Assembly (NCBI GenBank): GCA_965178125.1
Contig: OZ237764.1
Coordinates: 620,001 to 684,000 of the forward strand
Length of the DNA: 64,000 bases
From: Bilabrum cf. latius
Lineage: Eukaryota
Direction of reading: 5' to 3'
Shown here piece by piece: positions 8,434 through 54,901 of the stretch; the stretch's first letter is position 1, and each line of letters starts with the position of its first letter. Made by a program: the position numbers and the translations under genes. Under the pieces are notes generated by a model that was not told where the DNA came from, searched no databases, and saw nothing but the letters and a program-made list of their open reading frames with translations.

Positions 8434-8441
8434 AGCGTTTG

Positions 8442-28644: not shown

Positions 28645-28715
28645 TTTTTTATATATACACTATAGATATAAATTTTTTAATATCTAAACATATTTTATAA
28701 TCTTCTATAATTTAT

Positions 28716-29669: not shown

Positions 29670-30005
29670 TTTATTTATATATTAAAGCTATACAAATAAA
29701 TATTTATTAATAAACCTTATCTAATATTTCACCTTGATTTTTACCCTTCACTTTTACCAATATATTTAAAAGTTTGATTGAATTTAGATGGATGAAAAAT
29801 AGCCCTTCTAAAACGATGGAACTTTTCTAAATAAAAGGGCTTATATCTTCATTTCACCTTCACAAGAGGCCCTACATCCACGTTTTGCTAGAAAACACTA
29901 TAATATATACGCAATTTGTGGATATAGCCATCGTATGGATTTTATTTTAGAGATAATCATATTTTATTATTTTATTCTAGCCCTTTTATTAGAAGGGCGG
30001 GGTAT

Positions 30006-30581
30006 TCAATGTAGAAGCAACGCCACTAACTAATCAGGACTAAGAGCCATAATTTTGGATATTCTAAACATTTCATTTACAAACTAATCATTAGTTAAGA
30101 ATGAGAAAACAGTTCTTAATAATGCCCATCTTCCACAAGTAGCACTCTAATTAGCATAACTCTAAATAGGTTTATTATTATAGTCAATTTTCCAGCCGTG
30201 TAATTTCTACGTCAATAAATATTTAACTAGTGTGTTCTCTTCTCCTTCTCCTTGATACAATTGGTTTCTATTAATAAATGGTTTCTATTGGTCGGGTTTT
30301 TCTCCATAGCTATCAAAAAAATAAATAGTTTTATTATTTTCGTCCTAAGTAAGAGCGCAATAATGACCGTATGTGCTATTTAGTCCCGTCTTTTTATTAG
30401 GATAATAAATAATTACGCCGTCATAACCATCAAAAATATGTTCAATAGATGAGGTCTATTTAATAATATCATCGTAAATAACTATTCTAGGTTTGTAATT
30501 CAAATGTGCTACACCTAATTTTTGAATTTCTAAAGGAGATAACGGTGTTTGGACTAGTCTATTTAAGTCGTTTATGTTCAT
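30006..30581 (-). CDS. Adenain/Ulp1-like maturation cysteine protease
   Basis: GHYCAL, YFFDSYG, KPI*SYAN*SATCGRW (His/Asp/Gln/Cys); ends in TGA. Confidence 0.9.
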
Positions 30582-30589
30582 TTATATAT

Positions 30590-31660
30590 TCAATAGAGAA
30601 ATATTTTTTTTGTGCTAACTACATAATTATTATCAACATTAATAGCAACATAACCAAAGAGAGGGAGAGAATGAAGGGTTTTTTTAATTCGTTTTCTAGT
30701 AGGAGCGTCAAAACTTAAGACTGTTTCTAAAATATATTTTAAACTTTTAGCTGTAATTGTTTTATAAATGATATGGGTTGTAATTTCGTTCATAATGGTT
30801 CGTGTCTTCATACCGTCGCTTATTTTGTGGGTGATGTCTAAAACACTACTTGCTGTGTGCCTTCCTGTAGTTGCTAGGATTTCCAATAAAAAATAAGCCT
30901 TTGCTTTCTGGTTCCTTTTTTTAAAGCCTTCGTAATCATCCAGAATAAATAAATTAGGTTCAGCGGTCAATTTTTTAAAAAACTCAACATTTAATTTAAA
31001 ACCTTTTTCTATTAAATCTTTCTCAGGTTTTAAATCCTCTATCTTTCTTTCAGCTTCAATAACAACATCTAAAGGTTTAGATTTCATCAAAGAAGATTTT
31101 TTATATTTAAATTCTAATTTCATTTTTTTATAATAAGCCATTTTTTCCTTATATAAAGTGTTTTCATTCTCTTTAACCAAATCATCTATATCAATGAAGG
31201 TCGCGCCTTCTCTTTTATATTTAGGGTCTTGAATTGGTGATATAACATACATATTTTTATATTTTAATCCTCTATACATCCTTATATAATGTAAAGCTAA
31301 ATGACTTTTCCCGCTTCCACTCTTACCAAATAATCGCACATATTCACGCCCCTATGGAAAGAGCATAGGAAAAGGTAAATATTGACTATTATCTTTAATC
31401 GCAAATTCCTAAACTGACCGTATATATTCATCTTGTAATAGTTTATGTAATTGTTCCCTTTTCTTGTCCTTATCAACGTTATATCTTACTCGGCTTTCTC
31501 CGTAATAAGATTTTAAAACATCATCTGTTATCTCTTCCGCTTTGACGTGTTGAATATCTTTAGCGTTCGGGTCGTAATAAATAAACCGGTTCTATTGTGT
31601 TTTTTTATATTTTTGAATAGCTACAATATGGCTATTTTCCGTATATTGTAAAGATAGCAT
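30590..31660 (-). CDS. FtsK/HerA (A32-like) packaging ATPase
   Basis: Walker A GKSGSGKS, LFILDD, TGRH; 5' extension to MLSL start across TAG. Confidence 0.9.
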
Positions 31661-31752
31661 TATATATAATAATAAAATAAAATAAACCATTTATTCACAC
31701 GGGTTTAAAATATTAAGTTGGTTCCTTCTTCTATCCTTCCTCACAAAAAAAG

Positions 31753-32568
31753 TTATAGAGACATAATTATATTTTTAATTTCCGCCCGTGTTTTCCTATT
31801 TATGTATTGGTCAATCCACGATATTATCTTATTAATATTTGCTTTAGAATACTTTGAAAATTGTTTTATTATTTCCACATTTCCTAATGCTTTTCTCATT
31901 AGTCCTTTTAGGCTTTGAAATGATTTTGACTTCTCGCTTTGATGTCCTTTTATTCTTAGCATACTTTCTAATCGCATTCTTATGGAATATAAATATCCTA
32001 ATGCTTCCCTATCAATTAAATCATTGACTCTTTTTTCATTCCTCTTCTCACCTCTTAATTTAAATAAATCCTTCAATCGTTTTAATACTTTAAAATTATT
32101 AGAACCAAAATATTTATCTACATCTCTTATTAATCCATCTTTTACCTCGTCCTAATCTATTTCATAATCACTTATATGATAAATTATGCTTATTTCATCT
32201 ATAAATTTTCCATCAAAAGCCCAAAAATCAATTTTTAAGTATGGTTTATCTCCGCTAAATATCTATTTATAAATGGTTTTAACGGGTGTAGATATGAATG
32301 CTTTTATGGTCTTGTATTTTTTATTACCAGCTTTAACCTCAATAAAATTAACCTAACTTATAAAAACCTTTACAAATCTTATTAAACTATTTATAAATTC
32401 AGGCTCTACCCTCTAATATAAATCTATATCACTAGCAAACAAGGAATAATAAGGAATAGCATACGAACCATTTAAAAATAAATTAGCCCCCTTCTTAAAA
32501 TTCACCTCATCAAATATATCGTTCTCGTATTCATTAAAATAAGCTTGTGTCAATTCATTAATTTTCAT
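31753..32568 (-). CDS. Conserved virophage protein with nucleotidyltransferase-like GS...DID motif (Sputnik V21-like)
   Basis: FLNGSYA...ASDIDLY, FIEVKAG, LKIDF, FKVLKRL; immediately upstream of the ATPase. Family recalled, not searched. Confidence 0.6.
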
Positions 32569-32625
32569 TATATATTATAAGTATGGATAAATAACAAATT
32601 ATATATACCCAATATATACAATAAT

Positions 32626-33015
32626 ATGAGCGTTAAATAGAGCATAAATGATATGACAAATAAAAGCCTTCATCATCTTGGAATAAACAGAAATGATTAT
32701 AAAAAAGAAATTGATAAAATGGTTGAAGATACCGCAAACCAAATATTAAACGCAACCACAAAAGGAAAGACAAAAGGGGGAGCTGTAAACTTTCTTGGTG
32801 GATAGCCGAACGTTCTCGCTGGAGGTCCCAATTATCTCGCTGGAGGAAAAAAGAAGGGTTCAAAGAAAGCCCCTAAAGCTAAAAAGCCCCGTAGTGCTAA
32901 ATAGTTAAAGAGGGATAAATTAATGAAATGGTGCCGTCAAAAGGGAATGACAATGAAAGCCAGCAATGCTTTTATAAAGAAACACGACCTTATGAATAAG
33001 GATATTTCATTTTAA
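32626..33015 (+). CDS. Basic Gly-Gly-containing putative core protein
   Basis: Repeated LxGG motifs, Lys-rich, C-terminal RDKLMK..GMTMKASNAFIKKH similar to 50764-51003. Confidence 0.6.
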
Positions 33016-33092
33016 AAGACAGCCTACCAATTGACAAATTATCTCTTAAGTTTATAAATTATTAATTATATCATTAATAATATATATATACA

Positions 33093-35162
33093 ATGTCAAA
33101 CAATACAATTAATGATTTACTGAAGGGTATTATGTAGAAACGGTCTAATCAACTTAGGATACAAAATGACCCACAAGTTAGATTAATGATATAGCAAGAA
33201 GAAGATGAAGCAGAAGCCAGAAGAAAAACCCTAAAAGATGATGCTTTTCTTCGTGCTAATTATGTTCCTATTGATGTTAGAATTGAAAGACAACAACAAC
33301 AACAAGGAATTGAAAATATTATTAAAAATATTAAGACTATGAACGCTAAAAAAGAATTACCAATTTATCAAATAGAAAATTTACAATCATTTATAAATAG
33401 AAATCCAGATTTACCGGATAAATTAAAAAGATAGGTTGTAGATACCATTAATAATATTAATGTAAGGTAGGTAGTAGGACCAGCAAGCGATAAGAAAAAG
33501 GTATTTGATGGAATTAAAAATATTAATATGAGATTATTTACAACCACTAAAGCACAACGGGACGCAGTATTAGAACAATTACCAAGCGATATGAGAGGAT
33601 TAAAAGCAGTTCAAATACGAAACGCTTTACGACAAGCTGGAATCACGAAAACCCCCCAAGGGTAGAATGTTTCACAATTAACAAAAGTTGATGACGCTGT
33701 TAATGCTTTATAGGATGTGTTAAATCCTCCTGAAGCCGTTCAACAATAGCAAAGAGATGACCCGCAACCTGATAGACCTGAACCAGATAACCCACAACCG
33801 CCACCAGAACCAAGACCAAAACCCCCTCCAACACCACAAGAAGCATTAAGCCCAGAACTACAAGAACAAATTGAAGCACTTGAAAGAGTAGCAAACGCCA
33901 ATCCTTCAAGTAGTAGAAAAGCACCAAAGAAAACCGAACTAGCATCAATACTTAGATAGTCAAATGTTAAAGGTGTAAAAGGACGGTCTAAAGTTGATTT
34001 TATAAAAAGTGCTTAGAAGAAATTATCAGAACTTAAACAAAAAGCACAAGAACAAGAGGCATCACAATCATCAGGACAAGAAGAAGAAGGGGAGAACGCC
34101 AGTAGAAATTTATCAGGCTAGTTTTCAAAAGTATCACCCGCACCAGTTCCACCTAGTGGATTCTTACAAGCATCACCAGCACCACAAGGACAATCACCAG
34201 AACAAGAACAAGGACAATCACCAGAACAACAACAAAGCACATTTGGTTCTTTAGGACAATCGGTTATGGATGGTATCAGTTATTTAACAGGAAAAACAGG
34301 CTCACAACCACAAGCACCCCCCGCAGGTCAAGACAGAGGAAAAGGTGAAGCGATGGCAGTAGATGAAGATGGAGAACCTATTACAGATGAATTTGGAAGA
34401 CAACTTACAGAAGTTCAATTCAGACAAAGACAAGCACAGGCAGAACGAGATGAAGCACAAAGACAACAAGAAGAAAAAGAAAGACAAGCTAGAGAACGGA
34501 GGGGAGCCCCAGATGAAGAACCAAGAGATGGAGAAGCCGTAGAACAAGCACAACCAGCAGAACCAGCAGAACCACAAGAACCAGAAGAACCACAGAAAAC
34601 AGATGATGAAATAGCCAAATCAATAGGACAATCAATAAATGTAAAAACAGGTTCAACTAAGGAATAGATATTATCACAATTACAAAAAGCTGGAATAAAT
34701 CCAGTAGAATCAAAAACCGCAACTACATTAAAATATATTGTACGAAGGCTTAAAGCCGGAGTATTACAACCTAATCTACCACCTGAGAGAATCGCTGATT
34801 TAGTAGCCAGAGCAAATACAGAAGGAAGAGATACAAGAGCAGTTAGTAGACAAGCAAAAAGTATTCTTACTGATAACGGTTATCAAATGGATGGAATACC
34901 TATATGGACATATTCACCACCAGCTCAAGGTTTCGGAAATAAAGACCCTTATAATATGTTAATGAAAGCTATTAATTTAATTATTGATTAGAAAATAAAA
35001 ACATAGAACAGGGGCGGTAGTTGTGGATGTGGCAAGCATAAAGGAGGACAAATTGAACAAGAATATTTTAATGTAGCCGGTGGTAAAGGTAATCATAATG
35101 TGAAGGACAAGGTAAAACAAATCTTATATCAACACTTTGAAAAACTAAGATTATTAAAATAA
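33093..35162 (+). CDS. Large Gln/Pro/Glu-rich hypothetical protein (~689 aa)
   Basis: Frame contains track ORF 34266-34667 and appears to extend both ways across TAG to TAA at 35160. Confidence 0.65.
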
Positions 35163-35207
35163 TTAGTCTATAGGATAATAATATTTTGTTTTGTATAGAT
35201 ATATATA

Positions 35208-35825
35208 ATGGCAGAGTTAGTAGCAACAGCAAGCACGGTTGGTGGGGTGTTGGTTCCTCTAGGATATGCGGGATGCTTCCTTTGGAACTTATGTTCCTCA
35301 CTTGCGAATCGTAAAAAATTGTGTTTAGTCCTTCCACGAAAAGGAGGTAAAAGTTCACTTAACAAAAGTTTAACGTCTATAGACCCGAATATTCTATTAG
35401 TTGATTTAGATGAAGTCCTTAAAGTTAATGCTGACACCAAACAGGTCGTACATTTGAATGACGCCGAAGCTAGGGGCGACGTATCAACAGCCAAACTTTT
35501 AAAATTTGAGCTTATGAAAAAAAGCATTGAGAAAGTTAAATCAAATTGGTTATAGAAAGCAGAACATAGAGCCGTCTTTCTTACTTCAGATTTTGACCTA
35601 GCAAAAGAAATATTCAAGCCCTCCAGCGTGTGTGTAGCAATACCAAGCGATAAACTATACAGCAATATCTCTAAAGATTTAGACGAGAAGGATAAAGCAG
35701 TAGCTAGACATTCACGAGCTGAATTTTTGAAGAGCTTTAACCCTAATGAATATAGCGTATATAATACCTTTGAAGGGCTTTCATAGATGGTGATGAATGT
35801 CTATGGTCTTACATATAGGGTCTAA
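35208..35825 (+). CDS. P-loop protein with hydrophobic N-terminus
   Basis: LVLPRKGGKSSL, LLVDLDE; homologous to inner 45275-45892. Confidence 0.7.
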
Positions 35826-35861
35826 TTATTTGAATATTATTAAATAATAAATTAATAATAT

Positions 35862-37019
35862 TTATTTAGTCTTATTATTAAAATTATCCTTTAGGGTTTT
35901 TGATATATTTTTAGCCGGCTCCGTTGTTATCTTCCATTGAATTAAATATTCATCTTGTCCCTCTTTATTCTTTCTTCTCTTTATTATTTTACCTATATCA
36001 TTCTAATATTTTCTTTTAGTAGCCTCATCAACATATGAATCTTTCCATTTAACCCTGTATGTATTATTTTTATTCTTTCTTATCAATTTTTCAATTATAA
36101 ATATATCTTGTGCTTTATTCTCGTATGGTTTAGATGCTAATAACAACTAATCTCTATTAAAGTATGTATAGGGTATGCCCTCAATTTTATATAATGGGGG
36201 GTTATCTGGTTTTATTATTACTCTTTCAATTTTATAAGGCTTTACGCTATATTTAATATCTCCCGCCCTAAATGCTCCGGTTTCCTTTATCCCTTCTATA
36301 CTTCTAGGATAATCTAATCCTATTCTTACCATTTCGCCCTCATTTAATACATCACATACTTCACCCTAACATCTAGGCGGTATATATGGTAGATTCTCCC
36401 TTTTCTTATTCAACATTTCCTATCTTGTTTTATAACGCTCGTTTAATATCTCCCTCAACTTTGGTATTAAATGTCTCCAGTTCGTAATAGTTGTCCCCGT
36501 TCTTATCTCCTATGAATTCAAATAATAAAATATAGCTCTCCCTATTTCCTCATTCAATCTCTCCACCAAAGCCATCTACGATTTACGCTTCACTCTTGAA
36601 AATATATGCTCTATCTTATTCTTCTTTAGATATTCTTTAAATGATTCATTATCAAATTCTCCCCCTTTATCTGTTCGTATCATTTTAGGTTTCATTAAAT
36701 AATTTCTTTTATAGATTTTTTGAAAAGCTTTTATCACATCCTCCGCCCCTCTATCCTTTAACTCTTCAAAATCTAACGCTAATCCGCTAGTATCTATCAC
36801 AACTAATAAATATTTTGAATCGTTCTTGGTAGCGTAAGGGAGATACAATAAATCAGCCTATTGGATAAGCCCCTCTTTAGTAGGTTTATAATATTTAACA
36901 TAATTCAATCCTTTCGGTTTCTTTATCGGCTTCATTAAATCGTTCGTGATAGACTTCGTATTAAATCCAAAACTTGATTCATTAATATCATTATCTTTTT
37001 TCTTTCCTCTCTTACTCAT
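35862..37019 (-). CDS. rve (retroviral-type) integrase with C-terminal chromodomain-like segments
   Basis: Q*ADLLYLP, YLLVVID, IRTDKGGEF, ALVERLN (DDE); YRVKWK and YLIQWK..TEPAKNI. Confidence 0.9.
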
Positions 37020-37059
37020 TATATATATTAATTGATTTTAATATTTATAAATTAATTAT

Positions 37060-37431
37060 TCACGAATTAAAAAGCCTATTAATAGCTTCATTCGTTTTAA
37101 TGTGCTCCTTGGTGTCTCTTATCTCCTAATGGATATCAACCAGCTTTAATTTTTCTTTCTTAGTGAGTCCGTTCATCCTTCCTTTTAATGCTTTTAAAGT
37201 TTTCATATAAGGGGCTATAGCTTCTGCTTTCTTTTTGCTCACCTCTTTATATTCCACATTAAGAGCGGTTAATTTACTATTCACTTTATTTTTTAATTCT
37301 GTCTCTTTTATTTTTAGTTGCTTTAACTTTTGTTCTAATTCACGATTGGTCTTCTTAAAGTCTTCTACAATATCAAGAAATTCATTCTTTAACTTTGAGC
37401 GGGTATTAATCACTTTTTGTAATTTATCCAT
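37060..37431 (-). CDS. Coiled-coil hypothetical protein
   Basis: Lys/Glu/Leu-rich ORF extended across one TAG to TGA. Confidence 0.55.
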
Positions 37432-37596
37432 TTATATATAATTACTAGATATTTTTTTTATTTTTTTTAAACTATAGAATTTTATAAAACGGGTTTAATA
37501 AATTAAAATAAAATATTGGGCTACATTATAATATGTTCGTTAAGTTCCTGTTATCAAGTGTCAACGTTAAAAAGGTATTCCAGAATAAAAGCATCT

Positions 37597-38199
37597 GGGG
37601 GGGGACAACAGGTGGTGGTAGGTACACCAAGCGTTTAGGACGAGGGCTACGCTACGCTCGCCCCTCCTTTAAAGGCATATTTAGCAACTCAAGTGTTTCC
37701 CCTATAAACCTAAATGATTTCACAGGGGGTTCCCCAAGAACCCCTATAGAACCCCTCTATGTACCCATTTTCAGATATAAAATTTACTCCTACGAAGTAG
37801 GGGTAAATTGAAGAATTCTAATATTTAACCCCCTTATAAACTCTAACAGCAAAGACAGAGATGTTTTAGTAAAGTAGGAAAAAATGAAGAAATTAACCAA
37901 GTGTCCAAAATATCTCTGTGTTTGCTGTAGGAACGGAAGGATGAATTCCCAAGAGACCAAGAGACCAACCGAGGATTTCCCCAAGAGAACAAGGTATTTT
38001 ATCAAGAGACCGAGGTATGTTCCCAAGCGACAAACCGACAAACCGACCGATGAACCGACCAAGGATTTCCCAAGATGCTCGGGCTTTGCCCTCCGCTCTT
38101 TTGATATCTTTTTCAAAGATTGGATTTCCCAAGGATTTCCCAAGCGACTAAATTGTTCTCCGAAGCAACCAAACCGATTACCCAAGAGATGATACATTA
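37597..38199 (+). repeat. Left TIR of inner virophage
   Basis: Reverse complement of ~53541-54107 apart from a 47-bp insert and short-repeat copy differences; 38195-38300 also matches 53190-53295 inverted. Confidence 0.9.
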
Positions 38200-38341
38200 A
38201 AAGGAAAATAAAAAACAAATTATAATTGTTTTCCAATTAAAAACACAAAAATTGATTGAAAAATTTTGACAATATAGGATACAAAGAAATATTAAAATTA
38301 AGCAAGGAAAAGCATACCTCTATTAAAGAACTATATAGCAA

Positions 38342-39397
38342 ATGAGTAGCGCCTTTGAAAGAATATTACAATCCCTAAACATTTATCCCAACAGTCGTAT
38401 TGTAAATTTAATGAAACGACCAAAACGACCCAAAGGAGTAAATCGACCCCACGTAAATGTACCAGAACCTCACCAAGTGGTACAAATGGATTTATTATCA
38501 TTACCCCACGACAATAATTATAAATACGCATTAACTGCTATTGATTTACATACAAAGTAGGCCGATGCTGAACCGCTCAAAACCAAGCGTTAGAACGAAG
38601 TATTAAAGGCATCAAAAAAGATTTTCAATCGTGGTAATGTCCAGAAACCGCAGCACCGTTTGGAAATAGATAATGGAAAAGAATTTAACGCTTTACAAAG
38701 ATATTTAGAAGAGAGCGATGTATTTGTACGAAGAAATAAAGCAGGTCGCCACCGACAACAAGCATTAGTGGAAAACCTAAATAAAACGTTGGGAAAAGCC
38801 ATATTTACCCTATAGAACGTTAATGAGTTAAATACAGGTAATGAAAGCGTAGAATGGGTGGATATGCTTCCAAACATCATTGAAAACTATAATGAATATC
38901 AACTAGAAAAGTATATAGAAGAACCACCTTTACCCCCAGAACACTTCGACTTTACGTAGTGTAAAGGAGACGCTTGTAATATATTGGAAGAGGGTACAAG
39001 AGTTCGTATACCATTAGAAGAACCCAGAAAGGCTACAAATTTACAGCAAAAATTATCCGGAAATTTTCGTGCTTCAGATTTACGCTATAATCCAGAAATC
39101 AAAACGATAACTAAAGTATTACTAAGACCGAGACAACCACCCTTATATGTTGTGGATTAGGATGATTTAGTGGCTTATCCAAAAGAGGAATTACAGATTA
39201 TCGACTTTGATAATGAGGACAATAACCGAGATGCTCAGACAATCTTTCTGCCAAAAAAAATAAAATCCGAGAACGAAACAGAATATCAAATAGAATGGAA
39301 AGATTTTCCAGAACCAGAACATTGGACGTGGGAACCAAAGAATAAAATCCAAGAAATTGCTCCTAATTTAATTTTGGAGTGGGATATAGAAAATTGA
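38342..39397 (+). CDS. rve integrase with chromodomain (inner)
   Basis: VQMDLLSLP, YALTAID, LEIDNGKEF, QQALVENLN; YQIEWKDFPEPEHWTWEP. Confidence 0.9.
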
Positions 39398-39454
39398 GAT
39401 GCCCCGTATCGTACCTTAAGGATTATTTTCGTATTCTATAGTACAACAACAAAA

Positions 39455-41116
39455 ATGTCATTCACTCTGCCGACTAAAGCGTATTCGTCAAAAAGCCTTA
39501 TGGACCTATGTAATGCCGGAAAACAAGAGGAATGTATTCAATACCTTAGACAATACTTCTACCGCACCCACGAGCAAGGTGGCGGGGTGTATTTTCTAAT
39601 AGCATCTGAATTAAATCGGAATAACATAAGTGATGACGAACCCCAGAAACCAGTCTGGTAGTTCCTTACGAATAAAAATATTACTGAAAATTACCTGATT
39701 GGGGGACACTGTATTTACGCGATTGTGGGCAACAAAAGAGTAAAGACTTGGTCAGCACGAGACTGGTTCTTAAATGAGAATACCGACGTATTTACGATTG
39801 TAAGAAAATTTAATTCACCTACCGTGGATTACGACAATCAAACAATTAACGTTATGGGTTCACCTATACTTACACGGGAAAACTGTGGAAACATAGAGGA
39901 TTTATCCGAAGACGCAAAAGCAGGCGCGACTATGATTTATGAACATATCCAGAAGGTGTGGACTTCAGAAGACAAAGAATAGTGTGATTTTGTGATGAAA
40001 TGGTTGGCTCACGTTATTGTGGGCGGAAAGAAGTTGGGAACAGCACTATATTTGAAATCTCCACAAGGAACTGGTAAATCGATGATTATTACCTTCCTTA
40101 TGAGAAAACTACTCGGATATACCCTTACACTATAGACGCTTACACACAAGATGCTTCAACCCGACGCCTTCAACTCAATTCTGGACGGGAAACTATTAGT
40201 CAATTTTAATGAAATTCCAAAAGCCTCGCCAACTATTTGGGACGCCATGTAGGCAACACTAAGAAATCTTATTACGGAAAAACACTTTTCCTGTAATGAG
40301 AAGTTTGTCAAATCCGAAAGTCGTCCGAATACATTCAATCTAATTATTGATACGAATGATAGTCCAATCAAAATCACCGAGGAAATCCGTAGATATTGTG
40401 TTTTGGATGTGAATACATCAAAGAAAGGAGACAAAGAATACTTTACAACACTAAAACGTTTTACAGAAAATCCAGAAGTGGCTAAGGCATTTTATATGTT
40501 ATTGGTTGAAATCTATGATAAATCACCAGACTTTACAGGACAATTCGCACCAAAATCAAAGAATTTTTACAAAGGAATTCTTGATGGCGCACATCCGGTT
40601 TTAAAAATTCTAAAAGAAGAGTGGCTGGACGAAGGCAGAGATTTTAAAATGACAGTCTTGGAATTCCGCAATTATCTAAAGCAGGAACTGAACGGTAGAG
40701 TGAAGAACCTTGGTACACCTATGATTAAAACACTATTGTCAGAGGTAGGTGTTCATTCAACGATGAACAAATAGAGAAAACAAGAATTTAATGTGAAACA
40801 CGCAGACTTACTAAAAGGCTTCCAATCTAAATTTTAGGCACTTCGTCATTCTGCTGAGATGGAAAAAGCAAAATCCGAGGTAGATGTTCTTCGAGAGTAG
40901 ATTAGAGAACTACAGAAACAAGTCGCATAGCAGTAGGAAACGATTGAATAGTTGGAATTAGAAAAGGAGATTACACCGACGGAACAAGTCCATAAGAAAA
41001 TCCAGAAACAGCTGAGTGTTGAGAATAGCATCGCTATTCAAAAATGGATAAAAGAGAACCCACCAAAGAACAAAAAAGGAAAACTTTCCAAATTCCTCTG
41101 TAAAATTGAGAAGTGA
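39455..41116 (+). CDS. SF3 (D5-like) helicase (inner)
   Basis: Walker A KSPQGTGKS, LVNFNEI, NLIIDTN, IRRY; open across TAG to TGA. Confidence 0.85.
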
Positions 41117-41173
41117 GTGAGTTCGTACCTTAAGAATAATTATCGTATTCTATAATATAATAGATACTATAGA

Positions 41174-43015: not shown

Positions 43016-43016
43016 A

Positions 43017-43289
43017 TTAAATAGTCTGCTTTTCCTTTAGTCTCTAAATTTCCTATCGCAAACTATCAAGTTCATCCATAATATTAATTTGTTCCCTTTT
43101 TGTGTCTTCCTCTTTTTGAAGCCAATCAAGGTGTTTTTTGGTTCTACAATGATGTGATTTATTGTACTTCTTATATACACCACCACAGGAACACTTTATC
43201 TATTCTCCAAGTTTTTCCTTGTTTTTCCGGTAGTATTCACGGGCATACAGCTTATCCTGTTCTTTTCTTTCTGAATGACTGAGTGTCAT
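43017..43289 (-). CDS. Small zinc-finger protein (inner)
   Basis: IKCSCGGVYKKYNKSHHCRTKKH. Confidence 0.7.
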
Positions 43290-43330
43290 TTTTGTATTCT
43301 ATAGTATTATACTATAGAGTTAGATTTAAG

Positions 43331-43972
43331 TCATACATTCTACCAAGCAATTTTTAGAGCATCACTTTTCCCATATCCTCTACCTCTTAACTACTGAGCG
43401 ATTTTCATTGCTAGTTTTGCTTTTGGGTTTTTCCGACGGCGCCTCCCTTTTCCAGTTTTTTGTGGTTTAAAACTCTACTTCGCTCTTTCGTTCGAGCCCC
43501 AATCAGGCACTTCACCACCCATTCGCATTACTCTAGCCTATCTCGATGATAATAGTTCTTTCTAACTATTTCCCTTCTCTCTAGCATCAAAAAATTCACG
43601 CATAGTATCTCTCCGTTCTGACGCATATTTTCTATGAATTGCCTAATTAAAATCATCAAGTGTTGTGTCGTGTTGCTCGTGTAGTGATGGTGATAAGAAT
43701 TTTAGTATACCCACGTCATAATCACCATCACTATCTTTGTCAATTCCTAGCGTATCAAATTCTTGTTCGGTCTTTTCGGCGAGCATTTCCATCATTTCCC
43801 TTTCCTAAGGGTTTACATATACACGATTAGCGTACTTTTCCCCTATACTCTAGTGCTTCCTCAATCCTTTCAAAATTGCTAGTGCTTGTCTAGCGTCTTT
43901 CCCCAAACTCTGATGTGGCTAACTAGCCAGTAAATGTAGTTGTTCTTCGGTATAATCATCAACACCCGCCAT
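43331..43972 (-). CDS. Hypothetical protein with basic C-terminus (inner)
   Basis: Open across TAG to TGA; tail LRGRGYGKSDALKIAW resembles LRGKGISKKTALK*AW of the adjacent gene. Confidence 0.6.
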
Positions 43973-43992
43973 TTACTATACACAATCATAAA

Positions 43993-45249
43993 TTAATCAT
44001 ACGCAAACATTTTCCAAGCCTACTTAAGTGCTGTCTTCTTGGATATTCCTTTTCCTCTTAAAATGGACGCCATTTTCATAACTCTTGAACGTTTTGTTTC
44101 ACACTGACATTGACCTCCAAATATTTCCAGATACATACCCGATACTGGGTCATTCGTATGCGAATGGATTTCTTTCATAATTGGTCTTCCAACTGTTTTA
44201 GTTGCTAAATCCCAACCTTCCTTAAAATCTTGTCCAAAATCCCTTTCTGTGTTCTACTTATGCTTTTCCTAATTTTTTCTTAAAGCGTTTCTTACATCTT
44301 CCGGTAAATCATCTAAACCTCTCCCGAACCATTTGGAAAAATACCCAGCCACATCAGTAGCAGCATTAGCCACTCTCTTAGTAAATCCCGATACGTTCTT
44401 AGCAATACTCTCTACATCCTACATAATAAATTGGTTTAAGGGTGGTGTCAAAAACCCATTTGTGCGTAGAACATCCTAAATGAACTTTTGACAATTCAAC
44501 GAGAAAGCACGATACTAATAAAAATTGTATTCTCCTATTTTCTGTAAAGTGGTTTCATATAATTCCCTTACTGTTTTCTAAGGTTTTCCATTAATATTTA
44601 CTTCCATAGTTTGTGTTTTCTTGTTGGTGGAAAATCTTGAGGACAAATTAACCCTCTCATTCTTCTCAAGATAAATCTTTTTTCCACCTCCAAGGTTCAA
44701 CTCTAAGGCTAAGTGAAAAAAATCATTATATCCGTGTTTATTTTTTAACTTTTTCATTTTTCCAAGGGTAATCCAGTTAAGCAACCGATTAATCGCGCCA
44801 CTAATGGGGGTTCTAATTACTTTCATAGCTATAATTGTTCTATCCCCGTATTGCTGTAGTGTTCTCTGGACTTCGTTTGAATTCCCATACACTACTCCAC
44901 CCTTAAGCTGTTGCGCCAGCTAACTGCGCCGAGAGGGGGTGCTTCGCAAACCATCTTTTAAATACTAATGAAGTGTGTTGGATTGTGTGGATTTCTTCTA
45001 GGATTTCTTTTTTGGTTTTCCTTTTGTTCCCACACCATCTTTAAGCTGTTGCGCCAGCTAACTGCGCCGAGAGGGGGTGCTTCGCACACCATCTTCAAAC
45101 TTAATTGCTTTTTCAAGGGCTTCTTTAGAATAAGGATGTTCACTTTTCCATGTCCTTGTTGTTTTACTCTTTGGTTCTTTGACACTAATGTACGTCTTAA
45201 CAAAACCAGAATTCATTTTTCCGCCACTAAGTGTATAAAAACTATCCAT
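43993..45249 (-). CDS. Protein with putative permuted papain-like domain (inner)
   Basis: FFHLAL..LEKN..Y*YRAFSLNCQKFI (His...NC order); one frame from 45249 across TAG to TAA. Confidence 0.55.
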
Positions 45250-45274
45250 TTAGTATAGGCTTGTATTAAAAAAC

Positions 45275-45892
45275 TCATAGACGACTTCCAAGACCGAAGG
45301 TTTTCCGGACGAATTCCTCCAGTTGCTAAAAGGATGAATAGACACAGTACTAACTCTAATGTAATCCAGCGATTAAATTCGTTCTTGAGCGTTCTACAGA
45401 CAATAAGTCCCCCGATTTTTTCCCTTCACGGATTTCCTCAAAAAGACTGTGAGAAGGCACACACACAAAAATTGAACTTTCCTTAAATAAATCTTTCGCT
45501 AATTCCAACGAACCAACCATAACAATTAAACGCCTGGATTTCTTTGTGAGCCAATCCGCTTTAATTTTTTCATACACTAATCTTGACTAAGAGTAATAAA
45601 AGAGACGGTGGGTGCTTTCATCACCATCAATTAGCATTTTCTCCATTTTCTATTTTTCCTACCCTGAAATCTAACCATTTACGCATTCATCTAAGTCAAT
45701 GACCAAAGTGTCTTTATCAACACTTTCTATAGAGCGACACAAAGTAGTTTTCCCAGAGCCTTTTGGAACAACCACGCAGGATTTCTGTTTCTAAGTTCCG
45801 TCTTTCGTCCACCAAGAATATAGACACCGACTACCAGAATACATTAAAGGAGCCAAAGTCCCAGCAACCATTACAGCAGATGATACTGACAT
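45275..45892 (-). CDS. P-loop protein with hydrophobic N-terminus (inner)
   Basis: VVVPKGSGKTTL, LVIDLDE; homolog of 35208-35825. Confidence 0.7.
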
Positions 45893-45947
45893 TGTTTTGA
45901 TATACTATATACCAAGACAAATATTTATTGGTTTACCCTTTTCATAC

Positions 45948-47714
45948 TCAAGCTTGGAGCATAGCGAGTAATTGATTGCGAGAGAGAGATTTACCACCTG
46001 TTAATCCAGAACCCAACTTGGCACCTGTTAAGCCCTTGCCTTTCTTGGTAGTTTTTCGGGGTTTCCTTTGGCGTCCCATACCAGCCATTTCACCCACCAT
46101 TTTAGCGGTGTCAAATACCTACTTACCATCCTTTAATACTTTTTTGAGATTGCCTTTCTTTACCCAATCAGCGGTTTTGTGTGCGAACTTTTTTAAGGCG
46201 TGTCTAATCTTTTTCCCAAGACCGCGACCGTGTAGTCCTGATAATTGACTTTCATATACTACGGGTAGTTTAGAGGCGGAAAGAACATCTGCCCGTGAGA
46301 TGACACCCTGCTAATACTCAATCTTAGAACCATCAATCACATTCATTACTCCTTCGTACAATCCCACAACCACACACTACACATTTTGGTAATCTACAAC
46401 ATCATTATTCTTCACTCGTAGGGTGATAGACAATTGGTTAGAGCCGTTGCTTCCATTTGTCTAATCTACATCTAGGCTCAAATCCTTGGCGGGGTCGATG
46501 GAGAGAATTGCGCCTGATAGCACCCTATCCCCGAATTTACGCATAGCCCATTCCGCGTATTGCTATTCAAGTCCATTGCTTCTGGATAAGTCCCATAGCT
46601 ACTGAGGTGAAGCATCTGCGAGTAATCCACTTTGGTTATTCATCTCAATAGATATTCCCTCAATTCCAAGGAATGTGTTTCCCTAATCTACTGAGACGCT
46701 GGTAGGTGAGCGACGGGCAAACACAAATAGACGAGATGGAACTGAATTGCTAAGTTTAATATTGTTGTTCGTAAGAGTTGCTGTTGTTCCTGCGCTGATT
46801 GTTGCACCATAGCTTTGAGTATATGAAGTCATTTCAAAAATATCATAGGATACCTGTTTTGGAAGGACAAACCCTGTTTTAGGGGTAATCTATTCAAGGT
46901 ATAAATAGGGGTTCTGGACATCTACCGACTAAACGGTAGCAGTTAAGTCCTATTGTGGAATACGAGACCACACGGTTCTACTCAGTTGCGACCAATTGAT
47001 ATCCAAGGAAAGAGTTTCTAAACCGAAAATGGCTGGTTGTTCCTATTTACTTTCGTAATGGAAAGGTGGGCAAAGAACCGCCTCAGTACATTCAAAGACA
47101 AGAACACGATTTTGCGTTTGACCTGCGGGCACTGGAGTGTTATCCATTTGAACCAAGTTATAAAATCCACTTCCTCTTGCGGGTTGGTCCTAAAGCACGT
47201 CCTCATACGAAGCAAGAGCGTTATTTGTAGCCTAACTCATCATCGCGTATGAAGGCACATTGTCGCGTCTATACACACTATCAAGGCAATTCACACGATG
47301 AACATCATCATCTAAACAATGGGACACTACGTCCATTATTTCCGCGTTATTCTAAGTAAAGCGAATGTTATTGATACCAACTGTCTGTGTTGCAATGGAG
47401 CGATTAAGTGGATATGAGCGTGGAGCATCGTAATCTGGTGTAAATGGTACGAGAGCACCTGCGGTTTGATTATTCACGGAAAAGGTAATGGAAAAACGGC
47501 AAGACACGTATGCGCGGCGGCATAAACCTACACCTGAAGGCATACTAATATTCCAATTCACACCTGAATTATAATTACCGGCTGAACCAGATGGAGCGTA
47601 TCTGCGAAACGTTCGGTTCTCATAACCTTCTTGAACTTCATAAGGCTTTGGTTGTACGTCTAATGTTGCGGGAGATACTTTGACTGGCTGAAGGGCAAAT
47701 GTATTCAATGACAT
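45948..47714 (-). CDS. Major capsid protein (588 aa, inner)
   Basis: DAPRSYPL, SVPSRLFVFARR, Gly-rich basic tail (GKGLTGAKLGSGLTGGK); follows penton. Confidence 0.85.
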
Positions 47715-47792
47715 TTTTGTTTTCCTTGTATATTATATACAACGAATAAAATTCTATGGGGTCGCGTCCCCATCCGACGAATTATCATTTTT

Positions 47793-48908
47793 TCAAAGTC
47801 CTTTCCGTTTCTTAAATAAAAACTTCACACTCACACTTCCGTGGCGTAAATAAAGAGGTCTTAGATTTGAATAATTGTCTTTCCAATATAGATTAAACTA
47901 AATCCTATCTACTGAATGTGTATCTAAAAAATCAATTTCGTGGAGAATATGGGGCTGGTATTGAAGAACCTGCTAATTAACTGTTTCAGTATCATCTAAT
48001 ACACAATCCATATCCACTAATAAACTCTCGGTCCCTGAACCTGAATTTTGAACTGTATTAGTGGATTGTCCATAGGCGGATTTCTAGGATATTGCCTCAC
48101 TCCTCACTGGAAGACTTGAAGATGTGAAAACTATTCCGCGAAAAATCTAAAACTACACTAAACTCCCTCGTTCCTAGGTCATCATTAATCTGTAGTCTCC
48201 CGTTGGGTTTCCCTCGAAGTATGCCTAAGGTTCATATTTTCCAACAGAAGAGCCATCATCGAATAAAACATTGGTTCCTAGGGTTTTGAATAGAATACTG
48301 GCGTATAAGTCGTCATCTTGGATATCCATTCGTTCCATAGGAAAACCCGTCATCAGTTCGTTAAGGGCTTCATTCAACACTAATTTAAATTTCTGTCCTG
48401 AGTTTTCCTCGTCGTAATCGGGGTTTGCTACTAAACTGAACTTTCCATCTTTAAAGAGTAAAACCGGAACTGATGTAATATCCGCTGATAAAGCATTCTA
48501 TATGGTTTCGTTGAATAAATCAACAAAATGCTACACGGAATACATATAATAATAAGGAACAAACTACATAGGATTGGAAAAAGATGGTTGGTTTTCCCCT
48601 GTTAACTAGGGTCTCCACTGAATGCTTGAGGTCCACAAACTTACTCCGTCTTCATCTGTAATGCTTATTCTATACACCGTTTGATTAGGATTTGAAGATG
48701 GATTTTTCACTTTATCGGTTTCTATGTGTGGAACCCATAAAGGTATTGAATTGGTGCTTATGGAAAACCGGAATACTGACATCGTATAATCACCAACATC
48801 CTTATCTAATAATGGCTACTTGCGGGTTTCGCTATAGGTCGCTGGTTGGAAAGTATCTTCGTTATTTCGTATGTTTGCGGTAATGTAAAATCGGTCTGGA
48901 GAACTCAT
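47793..48908 (-). CDS. Penton/minor capsid protein (371 aa, inner)
   Basis: ATYSETRK*PLLD..DYDVSIFRFSI; YWKD..PLYL..SVKFLFKK. Confidence 0.85.
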
Positions 48909-48964
48909 TTTACTATAGACGTTTATAATTATGGGGTGGGTTTGATTACTTTTCTAAAGTATAA

Positions 48965-49456
48965 TTAAGATGGTGTAATAAGTGAACCTGACACTAAGGA
49001 TTTCCAACTAGATGTAGAAGAACTGCCAATCGCCACATAGACATCGTTGTCGCTTCCATTATACACTAAAGCGCCCTTGAACTTTCGCTCTGCTGACGTA
49101 TTAATAGGGGTAGAAGCGTCAGCCAATGTAGCTCCAGCAACCTCACTCAGCCCAACAACACCCTCTTGAGAAGTCTTGAATGAACCAACTAGTGAAATAT
49201 CGCATCTTTCTCCTTCTTCGCTCATACTGAACTGACAACCAGCAGACGCTCCGTTTTTTCCAAACCGTAGAACAGTTTCACCCCACTCCATATAAGGCTC
49301 TCCGTCTTTGAATTCAATACTTGGATTGCCTATGACTGCTCCCGTAGAGTTAGTAATTGCGGACACTTTAATTGCGTCGCTACTCACAACATTACACGTA
49401 ATAGTTTGAGACATAAGGTCTAGACTGTTCTTAGATAGAAGATTTGAGACTGACAT
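48965..49456 (-). CDS. Putative fibre/spike-like protein (inner)
   Basis: N-terminal/central similarity to 20601-21122 with a different C-terminus. Confidence 0.5.
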   Translation of the reverse strand: MSVSNLLSKNSLDLMSQTITCNVVSSDAIKVSAITNSTGAVIGNPSIEFKDGEPYMEWGETVLRFGKNGASAGCQFSMSEEGERCDISLVGSFKTSQEGVVGLSEVAGATLADASTPINTSAERKFKGALVYNGSDNDVYVAIGSSSTSSWKSLVSGSLITPS

Positions 49457-49521
49457 TTTATAGTATATCCACAGATATAATTTTTATCAGGTTGCCAAAA
49501 GATGTATATAAGAGGTTTTGG

Positions 49522-50703
49522 TCAATCTTTTCCTAAAAGATGTAATAGTTCCATAGCAACCTAATGATGAATATTTTTAGTGCTTCCTTTTACTTTCTTG
49601 GCTACATTCATTGCTGTATCATAGATAATTCTTTTTCCACCTGTTAATCCTTTCCCCTTTTTTGGTTTTCCACTTTCTCCTACAGTCATTGCGCGTGATG
49701 GTGGGTCTTCTAAATCAGGCTACTACATTCCATAGGGCGGACTAAACCCCGTAAATCGCTACACAGGTCTAGTAGCACGTTTTCCAATTCCCTGCTCAAT
49801 TTCCATCCTACTCGGCATATCATAGTACTCACCAGTTTCTGGGTCCCACGCCCCCGGAGTGCTTCCTTGCGGTAGTGGTCTTTCATTGCTCGCTGCGGCT
49901 AATATGGCATCTAAGTCTTTTGATGTTTTTGACGCATTACTACTTGAACCCTCTTGAAAATGCTAAAACATATTTGTCTGCCCCTGTGATGTTCTTTGTG
50001 AGAAATTCTTTCCCTATTCTAAATCCCACGCTATTCGTTGTTTTTCAGTTAAGGGTCTGTCTTGTTGTATTCTTTCTCTGGCTCTTTCCAATAACTATTT
50101 ATACGCACCCGAAGACCTTTTTGGAAGCTGTACTTGTGTTGGAGCGGAAAACGTGTTTCTTCTTGTTGTTCGAGCAGGTGTTTGTAAAGATGTTGGCTAC
50201 TAATCAATTCCCAACATTCCCTACGGTATTCGTTGTCCGGATGCCTCCTATATAACTTTCCCTAATTCTAAGAGTTGTTTTCTATCCTCAGCTGGAACTC
50301 TCTGCAGTCCTTCGTATCCTTTCCTTTGAAACCTCTCTATGTTAACGTATTGACGGGCGAGTTGTTGCTTCATTTGTGGAGACATATTGATATTACCAAC
50401 AAAATCCTTCAATGCTTTCACTGCTGGACTTACATTTTTACCCTCAATAATACCTTTCATTATACCAGATATTGACTTAGATATGATTTCCTCGTTGCTT
50501 TGGTCTGCCTATTTTCTCTACGCTGGAGTTCCATACCTTCCACTTTCTTTTAATCGTTCAATTTTTGCCCTTTTCCTTATAAAATCACTATATTCTGTTT
50601 CTAAATCTACGTCGTCTCTTGCCTATAAATCTAACATTTTAGCATTGTCCAGTTCCCTCTCTAGGGCTTGCTGAATAAGAGCATTCACTTTAGCAGTTTT
50701 CAT
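49522..50703 (-). CDS. Hypothetical protein (393 aa, inner)
   Basis: Contains track ORF 50248-50460; appears open across TAG to TGA. Confidence 0.6.
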
Positions 50704-50763
50704 TTACTATAAGCTTTTATAAAAAGCTTGGCCAAAAAATAAATTATGTTCATGTATAGTATA

Positions 50764-51003
50764 ATGGATATTGATAAGTGGATTATATAGAGAACCAAAC
50801 AACTCGCGCTATAGAAAGAACAAGACGCTTTAAATAGAGTTAAAAACAAACATATTAAAGTTGGAAAAGGCCGTAGTAAGCCTAAGCGGAAAGTGAGCGC
50901 CAAAATGAAACGCCGCAATAAACTTGTAAAAATGGTGATGTAGTAGACTGGTATGAGTTTACCTCAAGCAAGTCGGTATATACGAGAATAGAATATTATT
51001 TAA
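50764..51003 (+). CDS. Small basic putative core protein (inner)
   Basis: RRNKLVKMVM**TGMSLPQASRYIRE; similar to the C-terminus of 32626-33015. Confidence 0.6.
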
Positions 51004-51032
51004 AGAAACTTTTAGAAAAAGTTTGACCAAAA

Positions 51033-51935
51033 TTACATAAGGTAAGCCTACTTTTCTCCTAATAAATACCTCGGGTAATTCCTGTGGACACATACCCACC
51101 TAGAAGGCATTTTTAAGACTTTAGAGATTTCTTGTTTCTCAAGTCCTATATAATTTTTTAGTAAATACCTTAGAGAATGTGCGGAAGAACACTAAGGGAA
51201 TATAACGAACTTATGACTTTCCGCAAGAATAATTCGGGTACTTTTATAGTTGGTAGATAAATGACTTGTGATTAATACAGAAGTATTTGAATGTCTTCCA
51301 ACCTATAATATTTCATCCTGTAAATGATTGAGGGCTTCCCTTAACTTCTTATCTTTGATTGTATCAATATCATCCAAGATTACTAAGGCGTCCCTTAATT
51401 CCTAATGAATATCAATCGGGTTCTCCACCAGTTCCTCATTTAAAATAATCCTTTTCAGTCCTTTCACTTCATCTAAGACTTTATCCTACTATACTCGTGA
51501 AAATAAAATAATTCTCCTGTTTGGAAACATTCTATGATAATTCTTAGCATACTTGGAAACCCAAGTAGACTTCCCAGCACCTGATGGTGCGGTGATATAT
51601 ATTACCTCTCTTCCGTTTAAATTTGGTAATGATTGGAATTCACCCTATTTTAATGTAATCTCTTTATGTTTCTTTTCCTATGCTTTTTCATACAAGTATT
51701 TGATGTCTTCGTCTAGGGGTTCGACCTGTTTGATTAAGTGTCGTGCTAATAAATCCATTTTCCTCTGCGGAAATCGTTTCCCTGTAAGTGATGATACTTG
51801 AAAATCCTAAAATGACATACTATCATCTCCAAATTGGTTGTCTGTGTTTTCCGCCGTGTATAAAATACGTTTTCCGTGAGTGTCATATGCGATGGGTGTT
51901 GATTTTGTAGTTTCCTTCCAAGAAAAATGAGCCAT
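51033..51935 (-). CDS. Packaging ATPase (inner)
   Basis: YITAPSGAGKST, LVILDDID, IGRH. Confidence 0.9.
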
Positions 51936-52124
51936 TTTAGTGTATTTACTATATGTTTTTATTTTTTCTAAAGTGTTTTGTCTTTTTGTTGAAAACTTAT
52001 TTTGAATGATTGTCTTTTATGCTATCCACAAATTCCAAAACGGATTTTGTAGAAATACTTCTACGCTTAAATAGTGGTTAAGAGAATTCATCTCCCCCAA
52101 TATATGTTTCTATAATAAATATAT

Positions 52125-52661
52125 ATGGATTATGCTCTTAGCGATAGTGATATTCGTGTTCTCCTCCAAACTCCACCAAATATTAAGGGGTTTCTTCCTA
52201 CGTCGGTAAACATCGTTCCATATACAGAATTAGGATAGTACAATAGTATTGATGGATTATTTAGTCGTTGTAATTGTTGTATCATTCTATACCAAGAAGA
52301 AATAAATTCTGGACACTGGGTGTGCTTATTTAAGCGTAATAAAACAATATACTTCTTTGACAGTTATGGAATTCGTCCTGATAGGCAATAGCACACAATG
52401 AGTGAAAGCGTGCGGAAACGTTTTTATGAAGACCCTGAGTTAATATATTTAATGTATCATTCTCCGTATAAGATTGACTATAACCCATATTAGTTTTAGG
52501 CGGATGGAATGGATATAGCAACCTGCGGGAGACATTGTATAGTTCGTCTTTGGAATAGGGGAAAAAACGCTGATTAGTATAAAAAGTGGGTGGATAAGGT
52601 TTGTAAGAAACATACATTAAATCCTGATGAATTAGTGTATTTATTGACGTGTCATTTATGA
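52125..52661 (+). CDS. Maturation cysteine protease (inner)
   Basis: SGHWVCL, FFDSYG, YNPY*F*ADGMDIATCGRHC. Confidence 0.9.
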
Positions 52662-52940
52662 ACTCCAAAGGTAAAAATGTGAGAAGAACTTTGGGGTTCT
52701 TGGTTTTACTTCGATACCGTGTCGTTTGAAGTATCTAAATTGGCGGTCCGTATCTAAATGATTTAAATGGCTGTAATACCCTATTCTATCGTAAAATTGC
52801 TAATACCGCCTATCACCAAACGATGTAATATATTCATCATTTTCGTCAAAAACATCATACTTCTTATTCTTGCGTCTTGAGGGTGCTTTAAATAGAAAAT
52901 TCTCAACAACCTTTTCAAAATCGTAGGTATGTAGCTTCAT
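52656..52940 (-). CDS. Conserved small virophage/NCLDV-type protein (inner)
   Basis: SRRKNKKY..SFGDRRY*QF..YFKRH..PKFFSHFYLW; matches the C-terminal domain of 21176-21883. Confidence 0.65.
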
Positions 52941-53540
52941 AAGTACTTTATAGTATAGTCTTCTACTTATATCAAAGCCCGAGCTTCTTGTATTCCTTTA
53001 GTTTTTCGTGTAATTTTTTCCAAATACGTGGATTAATTTGCTTGACAATATGCTCTATCATCAACTCCTTTAAAAATGGGTTCATTTACTATAGTGATAT
53101 AGAATGGTCTTAATTATCATCTCTTGGGAAATCCAATCTTTGAAAAAGATATCAAAAGAGCGGAGGGCAAAGCCCGAGCATCTTGGAAAATTAATTTTAA
53201 TATTTCTTTGTATCCTATATTGTCAAAATTTTTCAATCAATTTTTGTGTTTTTAATTGGAAAACAATTATAATTTGTTTTTTATTTTCCTTTTAATTTTT
53301 ATGGTGGCATCATAGGAATTACAACATTTAATTTTAATCTTTGAAAAAGATATCAAAAGAGCGGAGGGCAAAGCCCGAGCATCTTGGGAACTTAATTTAT
53401 TTTTTCTAAGTCTCTTATAATTGACCTGTAAAATCTCTCAATTTTAATCTTTGAAAAAGATATCAAAAGAGCGGAGGGCAAAGCCCGAGCATCTTGGGGG
53501 ACTTTTCCAAAGGGACTTAAAATACGTTTTCGTTTTCCTT

Positions 53541-54860: not shown

Positions 54861-54901
54861 ATCTATAATAATTAAAAGTAAAATAATTATTATAATAAAA
54901 C

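Follow-up and report, generated by a model that had tools for sequence, protein, structure and literature searches.

Can a gene whose catalytic region is interrupted by an apparent stop codon still encode an active enzyme, and if so, under which genetic code? The question is raised by two cysteine protease genes in a stretch of 64,000 nucleotides from Bilabrum cf. latius (assembly GCA_965178125.1, contig OZ237764.1, positions 620,001 to 684,000), to which we refer as the window and to which all coordinates below apply. The best explanation of the window is that it is a piece of GC-rich (rich in guanine and cytosine) eukaryotic chromosome with two divergent virophages, one nested in the other and both apparently intact. 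Our reading as a whole, namely that the nested virophages use TAG for glutamine and that this code is most likely the host's, is the best explanation we have and in our judgement very likely to be right. The two elements and their proteases are the following.

9109..56499: outer integrated element, virophage-like; two insertions split its own ~24.4 kb of DNA, and its inverted ends lie at 9109-9531 and 56073-56499.
~37597..54108: inner virophage-like element, ~16.5 kb, inserted in the outer element.
30006..30581, minus strand: outer cysteine protease of 191 codons with 8 TAG, ending in TGA; His72, the Asp in FFDSYG, Gln139 encoded by TAG, and Cys148.
52125..52661, plus strand: inner cysteine protease of 178 codons with 5 TAG, ending in TGA; His64, Asp79, Gln125 encoded by TAG, and Cys134.

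A first-pass annotation of this DNA had claimed that a TAG stands nine codons before the catalytic cysteine in both proteases, and the sequence reads exactly so on both strands. The outer protease, on the minus strand, reads KPI[TAG]SYAN[TAG]SATCGRW, with the TAG in question at 30162-30164 and the cysteine codon TGT at 30135-30137. The inner protease, on the plus strand, reads PY[TAG]F[TAG]ADGMDIATCGRHC, with the TAG at 52497-52499 and the cysteine codon TGC at 52524-52526. A protein search with the inner protease found 26 proteins at E <=0.001 among 29 candidates, one of them the window's own product, and the two window proteases were aligned with 25 database homologues. Seven columns of this alignment are invariant, namely (in the numbering of the inner protease) G63, H64, Y81, Q125, C134, G135 and D168. 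The column nine residues before the cysteine is glutamine in all 25 homologues and, with TAG taken as glutamine, in 27 of the 27 sequences. The pairs G-H and C-G are likewise invariant in 27/27, the order His-Asp-Cys is kept, and the Asp of the FFDSYG segment is present in both window proteases, with Asp or Asn at that column throughout the alignment. Rather than aligning to some other, normally encoded position, the conserved glutamine of the family falls at the TAG column itself.

Because database proteins might themselves have been translated with TAG as glutamine, the codons were also examined at the DNA level. A motif search based on a second, narrower alignment located the protease in 74 of 80 related virophage loci from IMG/VR, and the codon nine positions before the cysteine is CAA in 52 of them, CAG in 18 and something else in 4 (AAG in 2, ATG in 1, GGA in 1). 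TAG occupies this position in 0 of the 74 loci with the protease motif, that is, no recoded environmental relative was found among them, and one metagenome relative that is 41% identical and uses the standard code has an ordinary glutamine codon there. A search for related loci that used only the inner major capsid protein as query retained none. The virophage relatives thus encode by CAA or CAG the residue that is encoded by TAG in both window proteases. The outer protease uses TAG for 8 of its 13 glutamines and the inner protease for 5 of its 8, so that TAG at this glutamine in both genes is expected about 4 times in 10. The informative point is the invariance of the glutamine, not the coincidence of the two TAGs; the site is one of 190 in-frame TAGs distributed over all gene classes and no special recoding event. 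Its value is that of a compact, checkable marker of the code in which TAG means glutamine.

On their predicted structures, both genes encode clan-CE, adenain-like virophage proteases of the V9 type. Structure prediction had been proposed as a check in the first-pass annotation, and both AlphaFold models (mean predicted local distance difference test, pLDDT, 93.9 for the inner and 88.4 for the outer protease) resemble adenain and Sputnik V9. The top solved match of the inner model is the adenovirus protease 4wx4_A (Z 13.2, root-mean-square deviation 2.7 A over 143 residues), with further matches to the clan-CE proteins OtDUB, pS273R of African swine fever virus (ASFV), poxvirus I7L and Ulp1/SENP, and for the outer model OtDUB (6ups, Z 11.9) and the adenovirus protease (4pie_A, Z 11.8) are tied at the top. 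Among predicted viral structures Sputnik V9 is by far the best match (E 3.8e-18, template modelling score, TM, 0.88, 35% identity), and the 178 codons of the inner protease compare with the 175 residues of Sputnik V9. The window proteases share with Sputnik V9 and the adenovirus protease the fold, the order His, Asp, Gln, Cys-Gly and the placement of the cysteine at the start of a helix; in the inner model Cys134 opens the helix 134-143 and the glutamine lies in the preceding loop. Single-sequence searches of the PDB returned only spurious matches to WD40 repeats and noise.

The invariant glutamine is presumed to be the oxyanion-hole residue on account of its invariance and its position. Adenain has Cys122 as its nucleophile, and its Gln115 is aligned to the oxyanion-hole residue Gln19 of papain (PMC4246237), which gives a Gln-Cys spacing of 7 as opposed to 9 in the window proteases. 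Consequently, of the earlier statement that TAG encodes the catalytic glutamine kept by adenain-like proteases at this position, the invariant glutamine of the family (25/25) stands, whereas the spacing of 9 does not carry over to adenain and the equivalence with the oxyanion-hole residue is presumptive. The profile comparison is ambiguous as to which adenain glutamine is matched: adenain is ranked first by the profile search, with an E value of 0.26, and in the weak alignments to adenain (E 0.26-0.45) the partner of the invariant glutamine is Q112 for one serotype and the equivalent of Q115 for the other. With the TAG column being the invariant glutamine of the family, an active enzyme would need TAG to be decoded as glutamine, and the further claim that function requires decoding at an essential site draws support from the invariant column together with the adenain-like fold.

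If TAG is read in this way in the proteases, the same should be visible in the rest of the two elements. When TAG alone is read through, the AT-rich region from 9.1 to 56.5 kb resolves into 31 tightly packed open reading frames (ORFs) that contain 190 in-frame TAGs in total and terminate at TAA in 17 cases, at TGA in 14 and at TAG in none, in all 31 beside the promoter-like motif of the next gene. The outer element contributes 19 ORFs (6320 codons, 89 TAG) and the inner element 12 (4346 codons, 101 TAG). Counted over the whole window, there are 59 ORFs of at least 150 amino acids with TAG read through versus 32 under the standard code, and between 20 and 56 kb the corresponding numbers are 29 and 10. 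A crude score that sums the long ORFs under each candidate code did not discriminate among codes in this AT-rich DNA, where treating TAA as a sense codon opened as much frame as treating TAG as one.

The outer element has TAG as 89 of its 271 glutamine codons (33%) and the inner element as 101 of its 247 (41%), and the genes for integrase, helicase and polymerase contain it no less than the capsid genes do. The four virophage ORFs that lack TAG contain only 2-8 glutamine codons each. Pfam matches run across in-frame TAGs in the MCP (major capsid protein), the penton protein (V18/19), the rve integrase, the Prim-Pol protein and the D5-like helicase. In nine pairs of inner and outer orthologues, the residue opposite a TAG is glutamine or TAG in 19 of 94 cases (20%), compared with a background of 4.8%, and CAA and CAG codons in the same pairs have glutamine or TAG as partner in 23 of 137 (17%); the alignments were scored with TAG as Q, which biases this comparison slightly.

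The partner data are also where a different amino acid (Glu, Lys, Leu or Tyr), or an ambiguous reading of TAG, would have to show itself. At variable columns TAG does face Glu in 14 of 94 cases and Lys in 10 of 94 in the sister element, the host paralogues described below exchange TAG with TTG/TTA and GAG, and nuclear codes with UAG as leucine or serine exist, as stated in PMC11687900. Nevertheless, the invariant protease column is glutamine in 25/25 homologues and in 70 of the 74 environmental loci, and the partner profile of TAG mirrors that of CAA and CAG, subject to the slight bias just mentioned; we hold any other assignment to be very improbable.

Two further sites in the outer integrase had been put forward in the first-pass annotation as TAGs that face glutamine in the inner integrase, and both do face CAA codons. 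The outer segment IQ[TAG]ADL (TAG at 36858-36860) aligns with inner VVQ(CAA)MDL and adjoins the first catalytic Asp, and the outer segment KS[TAG]MALVE (TAG at 36576-36578) aligns with inner HRQ(CAA)QALVE, five residues before the catalytic Glu. As judged from sequence, these comparisons show TAG to be a sense codon in the virophage genes, glutamine at invariant and at glutamine-enriched columns, with TAA and TGA as the stops. The virophages thus follow a code in which TAG means glutamine while TAA and TGA terminate, the pattern of NCBI table 15, and the real finding is this code, which is probably that of the host. Apart from the proteases, the genes and ORFs singled out in the two elements are as follows.

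38342..39397, plus strand: inner rve integrase with chromodomain; 5 TAG; Pfam rve 3.8e-9, Chromo 6e-6.
39455..41116, plus strand: inner D5/VapE-like helicase; 10 TAG; Pfam DUF5906 3.3e-15, VapE-like 1.4e-5.
41174..43015, plus strand: inner DNA polymerase B of the protein-primed type; 4 TAG; Pfam DNA_pol_B_2 1.3e-5, just under the cut-off.
45948..47714, minus strand: inner MCP; 14 TAG, ends in TGA; Pfam MCP_V20_C 2.2e-27, Sputnik_MCP_1st 1.9e-22.
47793..48908, minus strand: inner penton or minor capsid protein; 12 TAG; Pfam V18-19 1.1e-10.
51033..51935, minus strand: inner P-loop ATPase, presumed to be the packaging ATPase; 9 TAG; Pfam AAA-type families from 9.3e-6, all under the curated cut-offs.
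37784-38197, minus strand, and 53544-53921, plus strand: mirror-image ORFs of 125-137 codons in the inner inverted ends.
10945..13656, plus strand: outer primase-polymerase/helicase; 19 TAG, ends in TAA; Pfam Prim-Pol 6.9e-16, PriCT_2 3.2e-6.
22078-23577: outer ORF alignable with the inner DNA polymerase B.
26028-26687, minus strand: outer ORF without TAG.
26755..28644, minus strand: outer MCP; 8 TAG, ends in TAA; 545 columns aligned with the inner MCP.
28716..29669, minus strand: outer penton or minor capsid protein; 5 TAG; Pfam V18-19 5.3e-7.
35862..37019, minus strand: outer rve integrase with chromo-like C-terminus; 7 TAG; Pfam rve 8.7e-12.
54902-56002, minus strand: outer gene with DUF285 (BspA-like) repeats; Pfam 2e-128; 75-nt repeats, one TAG only.

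The virophage morphogenesis module is recognized in the inner element by Pfam for the MCP and the penton, by fold for the protease and at sub-threshold level for the ATPase, and the orthologues in the outer element can be aligned to those of the inner element. The Pfam matches of the inner MCP cover residues 8-454, in-frame TAGs included; the MCP_V20_C match of the outer MCP is weak (0.0041, under the curated cut-off). The mirror-image ORFs at 37784-38197 and 53544-53921 are probably the terminal repeat read on both strands and not genes. The outer ORF at 26028-26687 has no Pfam match at E 0.01; on inspection by eye only, its N-terminus resembles a GIY-YIG homing-endonuclease motif.

Two kinds of repetitive DNA were observed within the outer element. 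The first is an insertion of 6.5 kb (13650-20134) that is GC-rich (64-68%) and starts where the primase gene has its stop codon. The insertion contains a ~284-bp unit repeated 17 times in tandem (14276-19220) and is framed by identical direct repeats of 196 nt (13654-13849 and 19769-19964) together with a second repeat pair of 150 nt (19623-19772 and 19985-20134). The one ORF tested from it matched no Pfam family, and the insertion may represent a satellite of the host or what is left of a retroelement. The second is a conserved intergenic element of ~90 nt that contains an internal inverted repeat (ATCCAC ... GTGGAT) and is present in five copies (9306-9381, 10639-10714, 24742-24817, 29889-29969 and 56237-56317), two of which lie inside the outer inverted ends.

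Whether the elements are functional or decayed bears directly on how their TAGs are to be understood. Both carry the hallmarks of integration in the form of an rve integrase and inverted ends, to which a target duplication and an empty site are added for the inner element only. According to the repeat analysis, the inner ends extend over at least 470 nt and are 99% complementary (37596-38065 and 53640-54109), and a target duplication of 4-5 bp, (C)ATCT, is found at 37592/3-37596 and 54108/9-54112. The outer ends comprise 368 nt at 97% and 47 nt at 100%, with the first 30 nt identical at both ends; the sequences that flank them have only CGC in common. The GC content is ~60% in the flanks (1-9100 and 56500-64000) versus ~30-40% between them, with an island of 64-68% at 14-20 kb, and the outer element itself has ~30%.

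Contigs of four public sequencing runs, each from a different organism, were compared with the window at 44001-64000; the comparison covers contigs only, and differences between window and contigs number at least 40 among those listed. Contigs of runs X3 and X5 span all of 44001-64000, the inner protease included. In contigs of the same two runs a sequence like 37562-37591 (28 of 30 letters) is joined straight to 54108 onward, which indicates an outer-element copy that lacks the inner insertion, i.e., an empty site. Contigs of runs X7 and X9 lie on the host-like flank and on parts of the inverted ends and not on the body of the inner virophage, and a contig of X9 diverges from the window exactly after 56499, where the outer element ends. 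Judging from the different coverage in the two pairs of runs, the insertions appear to be polymorphic among related strains or species.

Every one of the 31 virophage ORFs is preceded, 3-12 nt 5' of its ATG, by a short conserved motif (for example at 52100-52124 and 47715-47740), which reads TATAG(T)A before the genes of the inner element and TATATA(G/T)A before those of the outer one. A second motif, GCGTTTAAAATGACTTAAA, occurs ~40 nt upstream of five outer genes (10945, 22078, 24090, 24958 and 54902). The two motifs have the appearance of promoters, in two classes, that belong to a cytoplasmic helper virus. The near-perfect complementarity of the inner ends, the target duplication, the copy with the empty site and the motifs before the start codons make the elements look alive.

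This evidence can be set against the possibility that the elements are dead copies and their TAGs nonsense mutations, for example from C-to-T decay of CAG. TAG is indeed one transition away from CAG, and published surveys caution that stop codons are frequent in the genes of integrated viruses (PMC10120064). Decay should, however, also produce TAA, from the far commoner CAA, and the 31 ORFs with their 190 TAGs are open until TAA or TGA, while 997 TAA and 704 TGA occur in the two off-frames of the same ORFs. The state of the inner ends, the conserved promoter-like motifs and the presence of the entire segment from 44001 to 64000 in runs from two organisms argue in the same direction, and we find decay scarcely credible as an explanation.

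The remaining question is whose code this is, and it has to be answered from the flanks, where two gene families are recognized.

4790..5938, minus strand (second copy at 59336-60487): host nucleoredoxin-like gene; no TAG, ends in TGA; Pfam Thioredoxin_8 1e-9.
6397..8433, plus strand (also 1240-3267 and 60928-62961): host-flank paralogue family; 675-678 codons with 3-6 in-frame TAGs.

All 10 Protein Atlas clusters among the matches listed for the nucleoredoxin-like gene are 100% Eukaryota, which identifies the flanks as eukaryotic. In the flanks a gene pair is segmentally duplicated, namely the nucleoredoxin-like gene and a gene for a 678-residue protein with no assigned function, and the virophage lies between two repeat units. 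Of the TAG columns in the three paralogues, two have TAG in every copy; TAG alternates with CAG in three others, with TTG/TTA in two and with GAG in one. Over codons 1-309 the reading frame contains no TGA, 0-1 TAA and 3-5 TAG, whereas each of the other five frames contains 3-9 TAA and TGA combined; a frame that carries TAG and is free of TGA is the signature expected if TAG is a sense codon in the host. A library-wide search with the paralogue found database fragments, two of which (out of three) stop where the window copies have TAG, and we attribute these ends to gene calling under the standard code and not to translation.

Several points weigh against a code shared by the host. The paralogues are the sole family behind the host evidence; they match no Pfam family and appear lineage-specific, and the library-wide search yielded only the three fragments (321, 101 and 53 amino acids, at 81-95% identity). 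Their N-terminal halves, in which the TAGs are concentrated, are 94-98% identical (the C-terminal halves 83-90%) and show no third-position bias (differences 25:18:18), so that selection is not demonstrable there. Of the 9 stop-type columns 8 are TAG, which is a modest excess (P ~0.02 when mutation is modelled in a simple way), and one TAA stands in frame in the copy at 1240-3267, at a codon that is GAA in the other two, with no TGA in any copy. The conserved nucleoredoxin-like gene has no TAG, and the 64-kb window contains no transfer RNA (tRNA) gene by ARAGORN and no Rfam family.

The alternative is a recoding confined to the viruses, in which a host with the standard code would read UAG as glutamine only during infection, by means of a suppressor tRNA supplied by a helper giant virus or a mobile element. 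The host evidence is, after all, limited to one fast-evolving gene family, and the only recognizable conserved host gene does without TAG in both copies and ends in TGA. On the other hand, the paralogues keep a frame of 675-678 codons with one TAA and no TGA in spite of 3-6 TAGs, of which two recur in every copy; TAG is equally present in early-type genes (integrase, helicase and polymerase) and in late genes, with no sign of a timed switch; and neither element contains a tRNA gene. We therefore consider recoding by the viruses alone unlikely and a host that shares the virophage code probable; that the code with TAG as glutamine is host-wide seems to us a likely proposition.

Under such a code, decoding would presumably be carried out by a glutamine tRNA with a CUA anticodon in combination with a release factor that is blind to UAG. 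Both virophage lineages would have evolved under it long enough for TAG to become the second commonest glutamine codon, and their proteases would be active only where UAG is read as glutamine. Host ribosomes translate virophages, and a giant virus assists in their transcription. That TAG is the second commonest glutamine codon in two divergent virophages accordingly implies a long-standing community of host, giant virus and virophages under UAG as glutamine. A practical implication is that gene calling under the standard code shatters the virophage elements and splits the host genes at TAG, and surveys would thus score them as degraded.

Some comparable systems are familiar. The endogenous mavirus-like elements (EMALEs) of Cafeteria, which Hackl et al. 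reportedly described in 2021, are said to be AT-rich virophages with inverted ends and an rve integrase that reside in a GC-rich protist genome and are themselves hit by other mobile DNA; they reportedly use the standard code, unlike the window elements. In the 'code 15' phages attributed to Borges et al., TAG is likewise said to mean glutamine, with the recoding concentrated in late genes, a host that uses the standard code and often a suppressor tRNA of the phage's own. The window elements resemble these phages in reading TAG as glutamine in viral genes and differ in that all gene classes are affected and no tRNA is present.

With respect to giant viruses, a 2026 catalogue (PMC13524828) reports that variant codes give better gene calls for some metagenomic genomes, that these variant-code viruses have no known hosts and that the confirmed isolates all come from standard-code hosts. 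A genome like the one described here is a place to look for the host of variant-code giant viruses.

That integrated viruses can follow the variant code of their host is already known. In Streblomastix strix, integrated viruses use the host code in which TAA and TAG both mean glutamine, and Bellas et al. 2023 (PMC10120064) see in this the mark of a long association. Like the window elements, they are integrated DNA viruses of the polinton-like and virophage realm in a variant code, which in Streblomastix is the host's. They differ in that both TAA and TAG are glutamine there, whereas in the window only TAG is and TAA ends more genes than TGA does (17 of 31), and in that recognition of the Streblomastix elements relied on polinton-like MCPs from a Metamonada group, while the window elements are virophages similar to Sputnik and mavirus. 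In the literature searched, including one supplement of PMC10120064 that contained no match for code terms, this remark on Streblomastix was the only mention of virophages with a variant code, and nothing was found on a virophage in whose code UAG alone is reassigned.

Among eukaryotes, Iotanema spirale, Protocruzia tuzeti and two lineages of phyllopharyngean ciliates are on record with nuclear codes in which UAG alone has become glutamine (PMC11687900; also PMC5304391). It is conceivable, although we would not rate it as the likelier outcome, that the window represents a further, undescribed origin of the UAG-only code in a GC-rich eukaryote that is not a ciliate, and that this eukaryote hosts a complete system of host, giant virus and virophages with TAG as glutamine, to which at least two virophage lineages have adapted. 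The lineages with UAG alone as glutamine agree with the window in retaining UAA and UGA as stops, and what may set the window host apart from them is the ~60% GC content of its flanks within one contiguous stretch of 64 kb.

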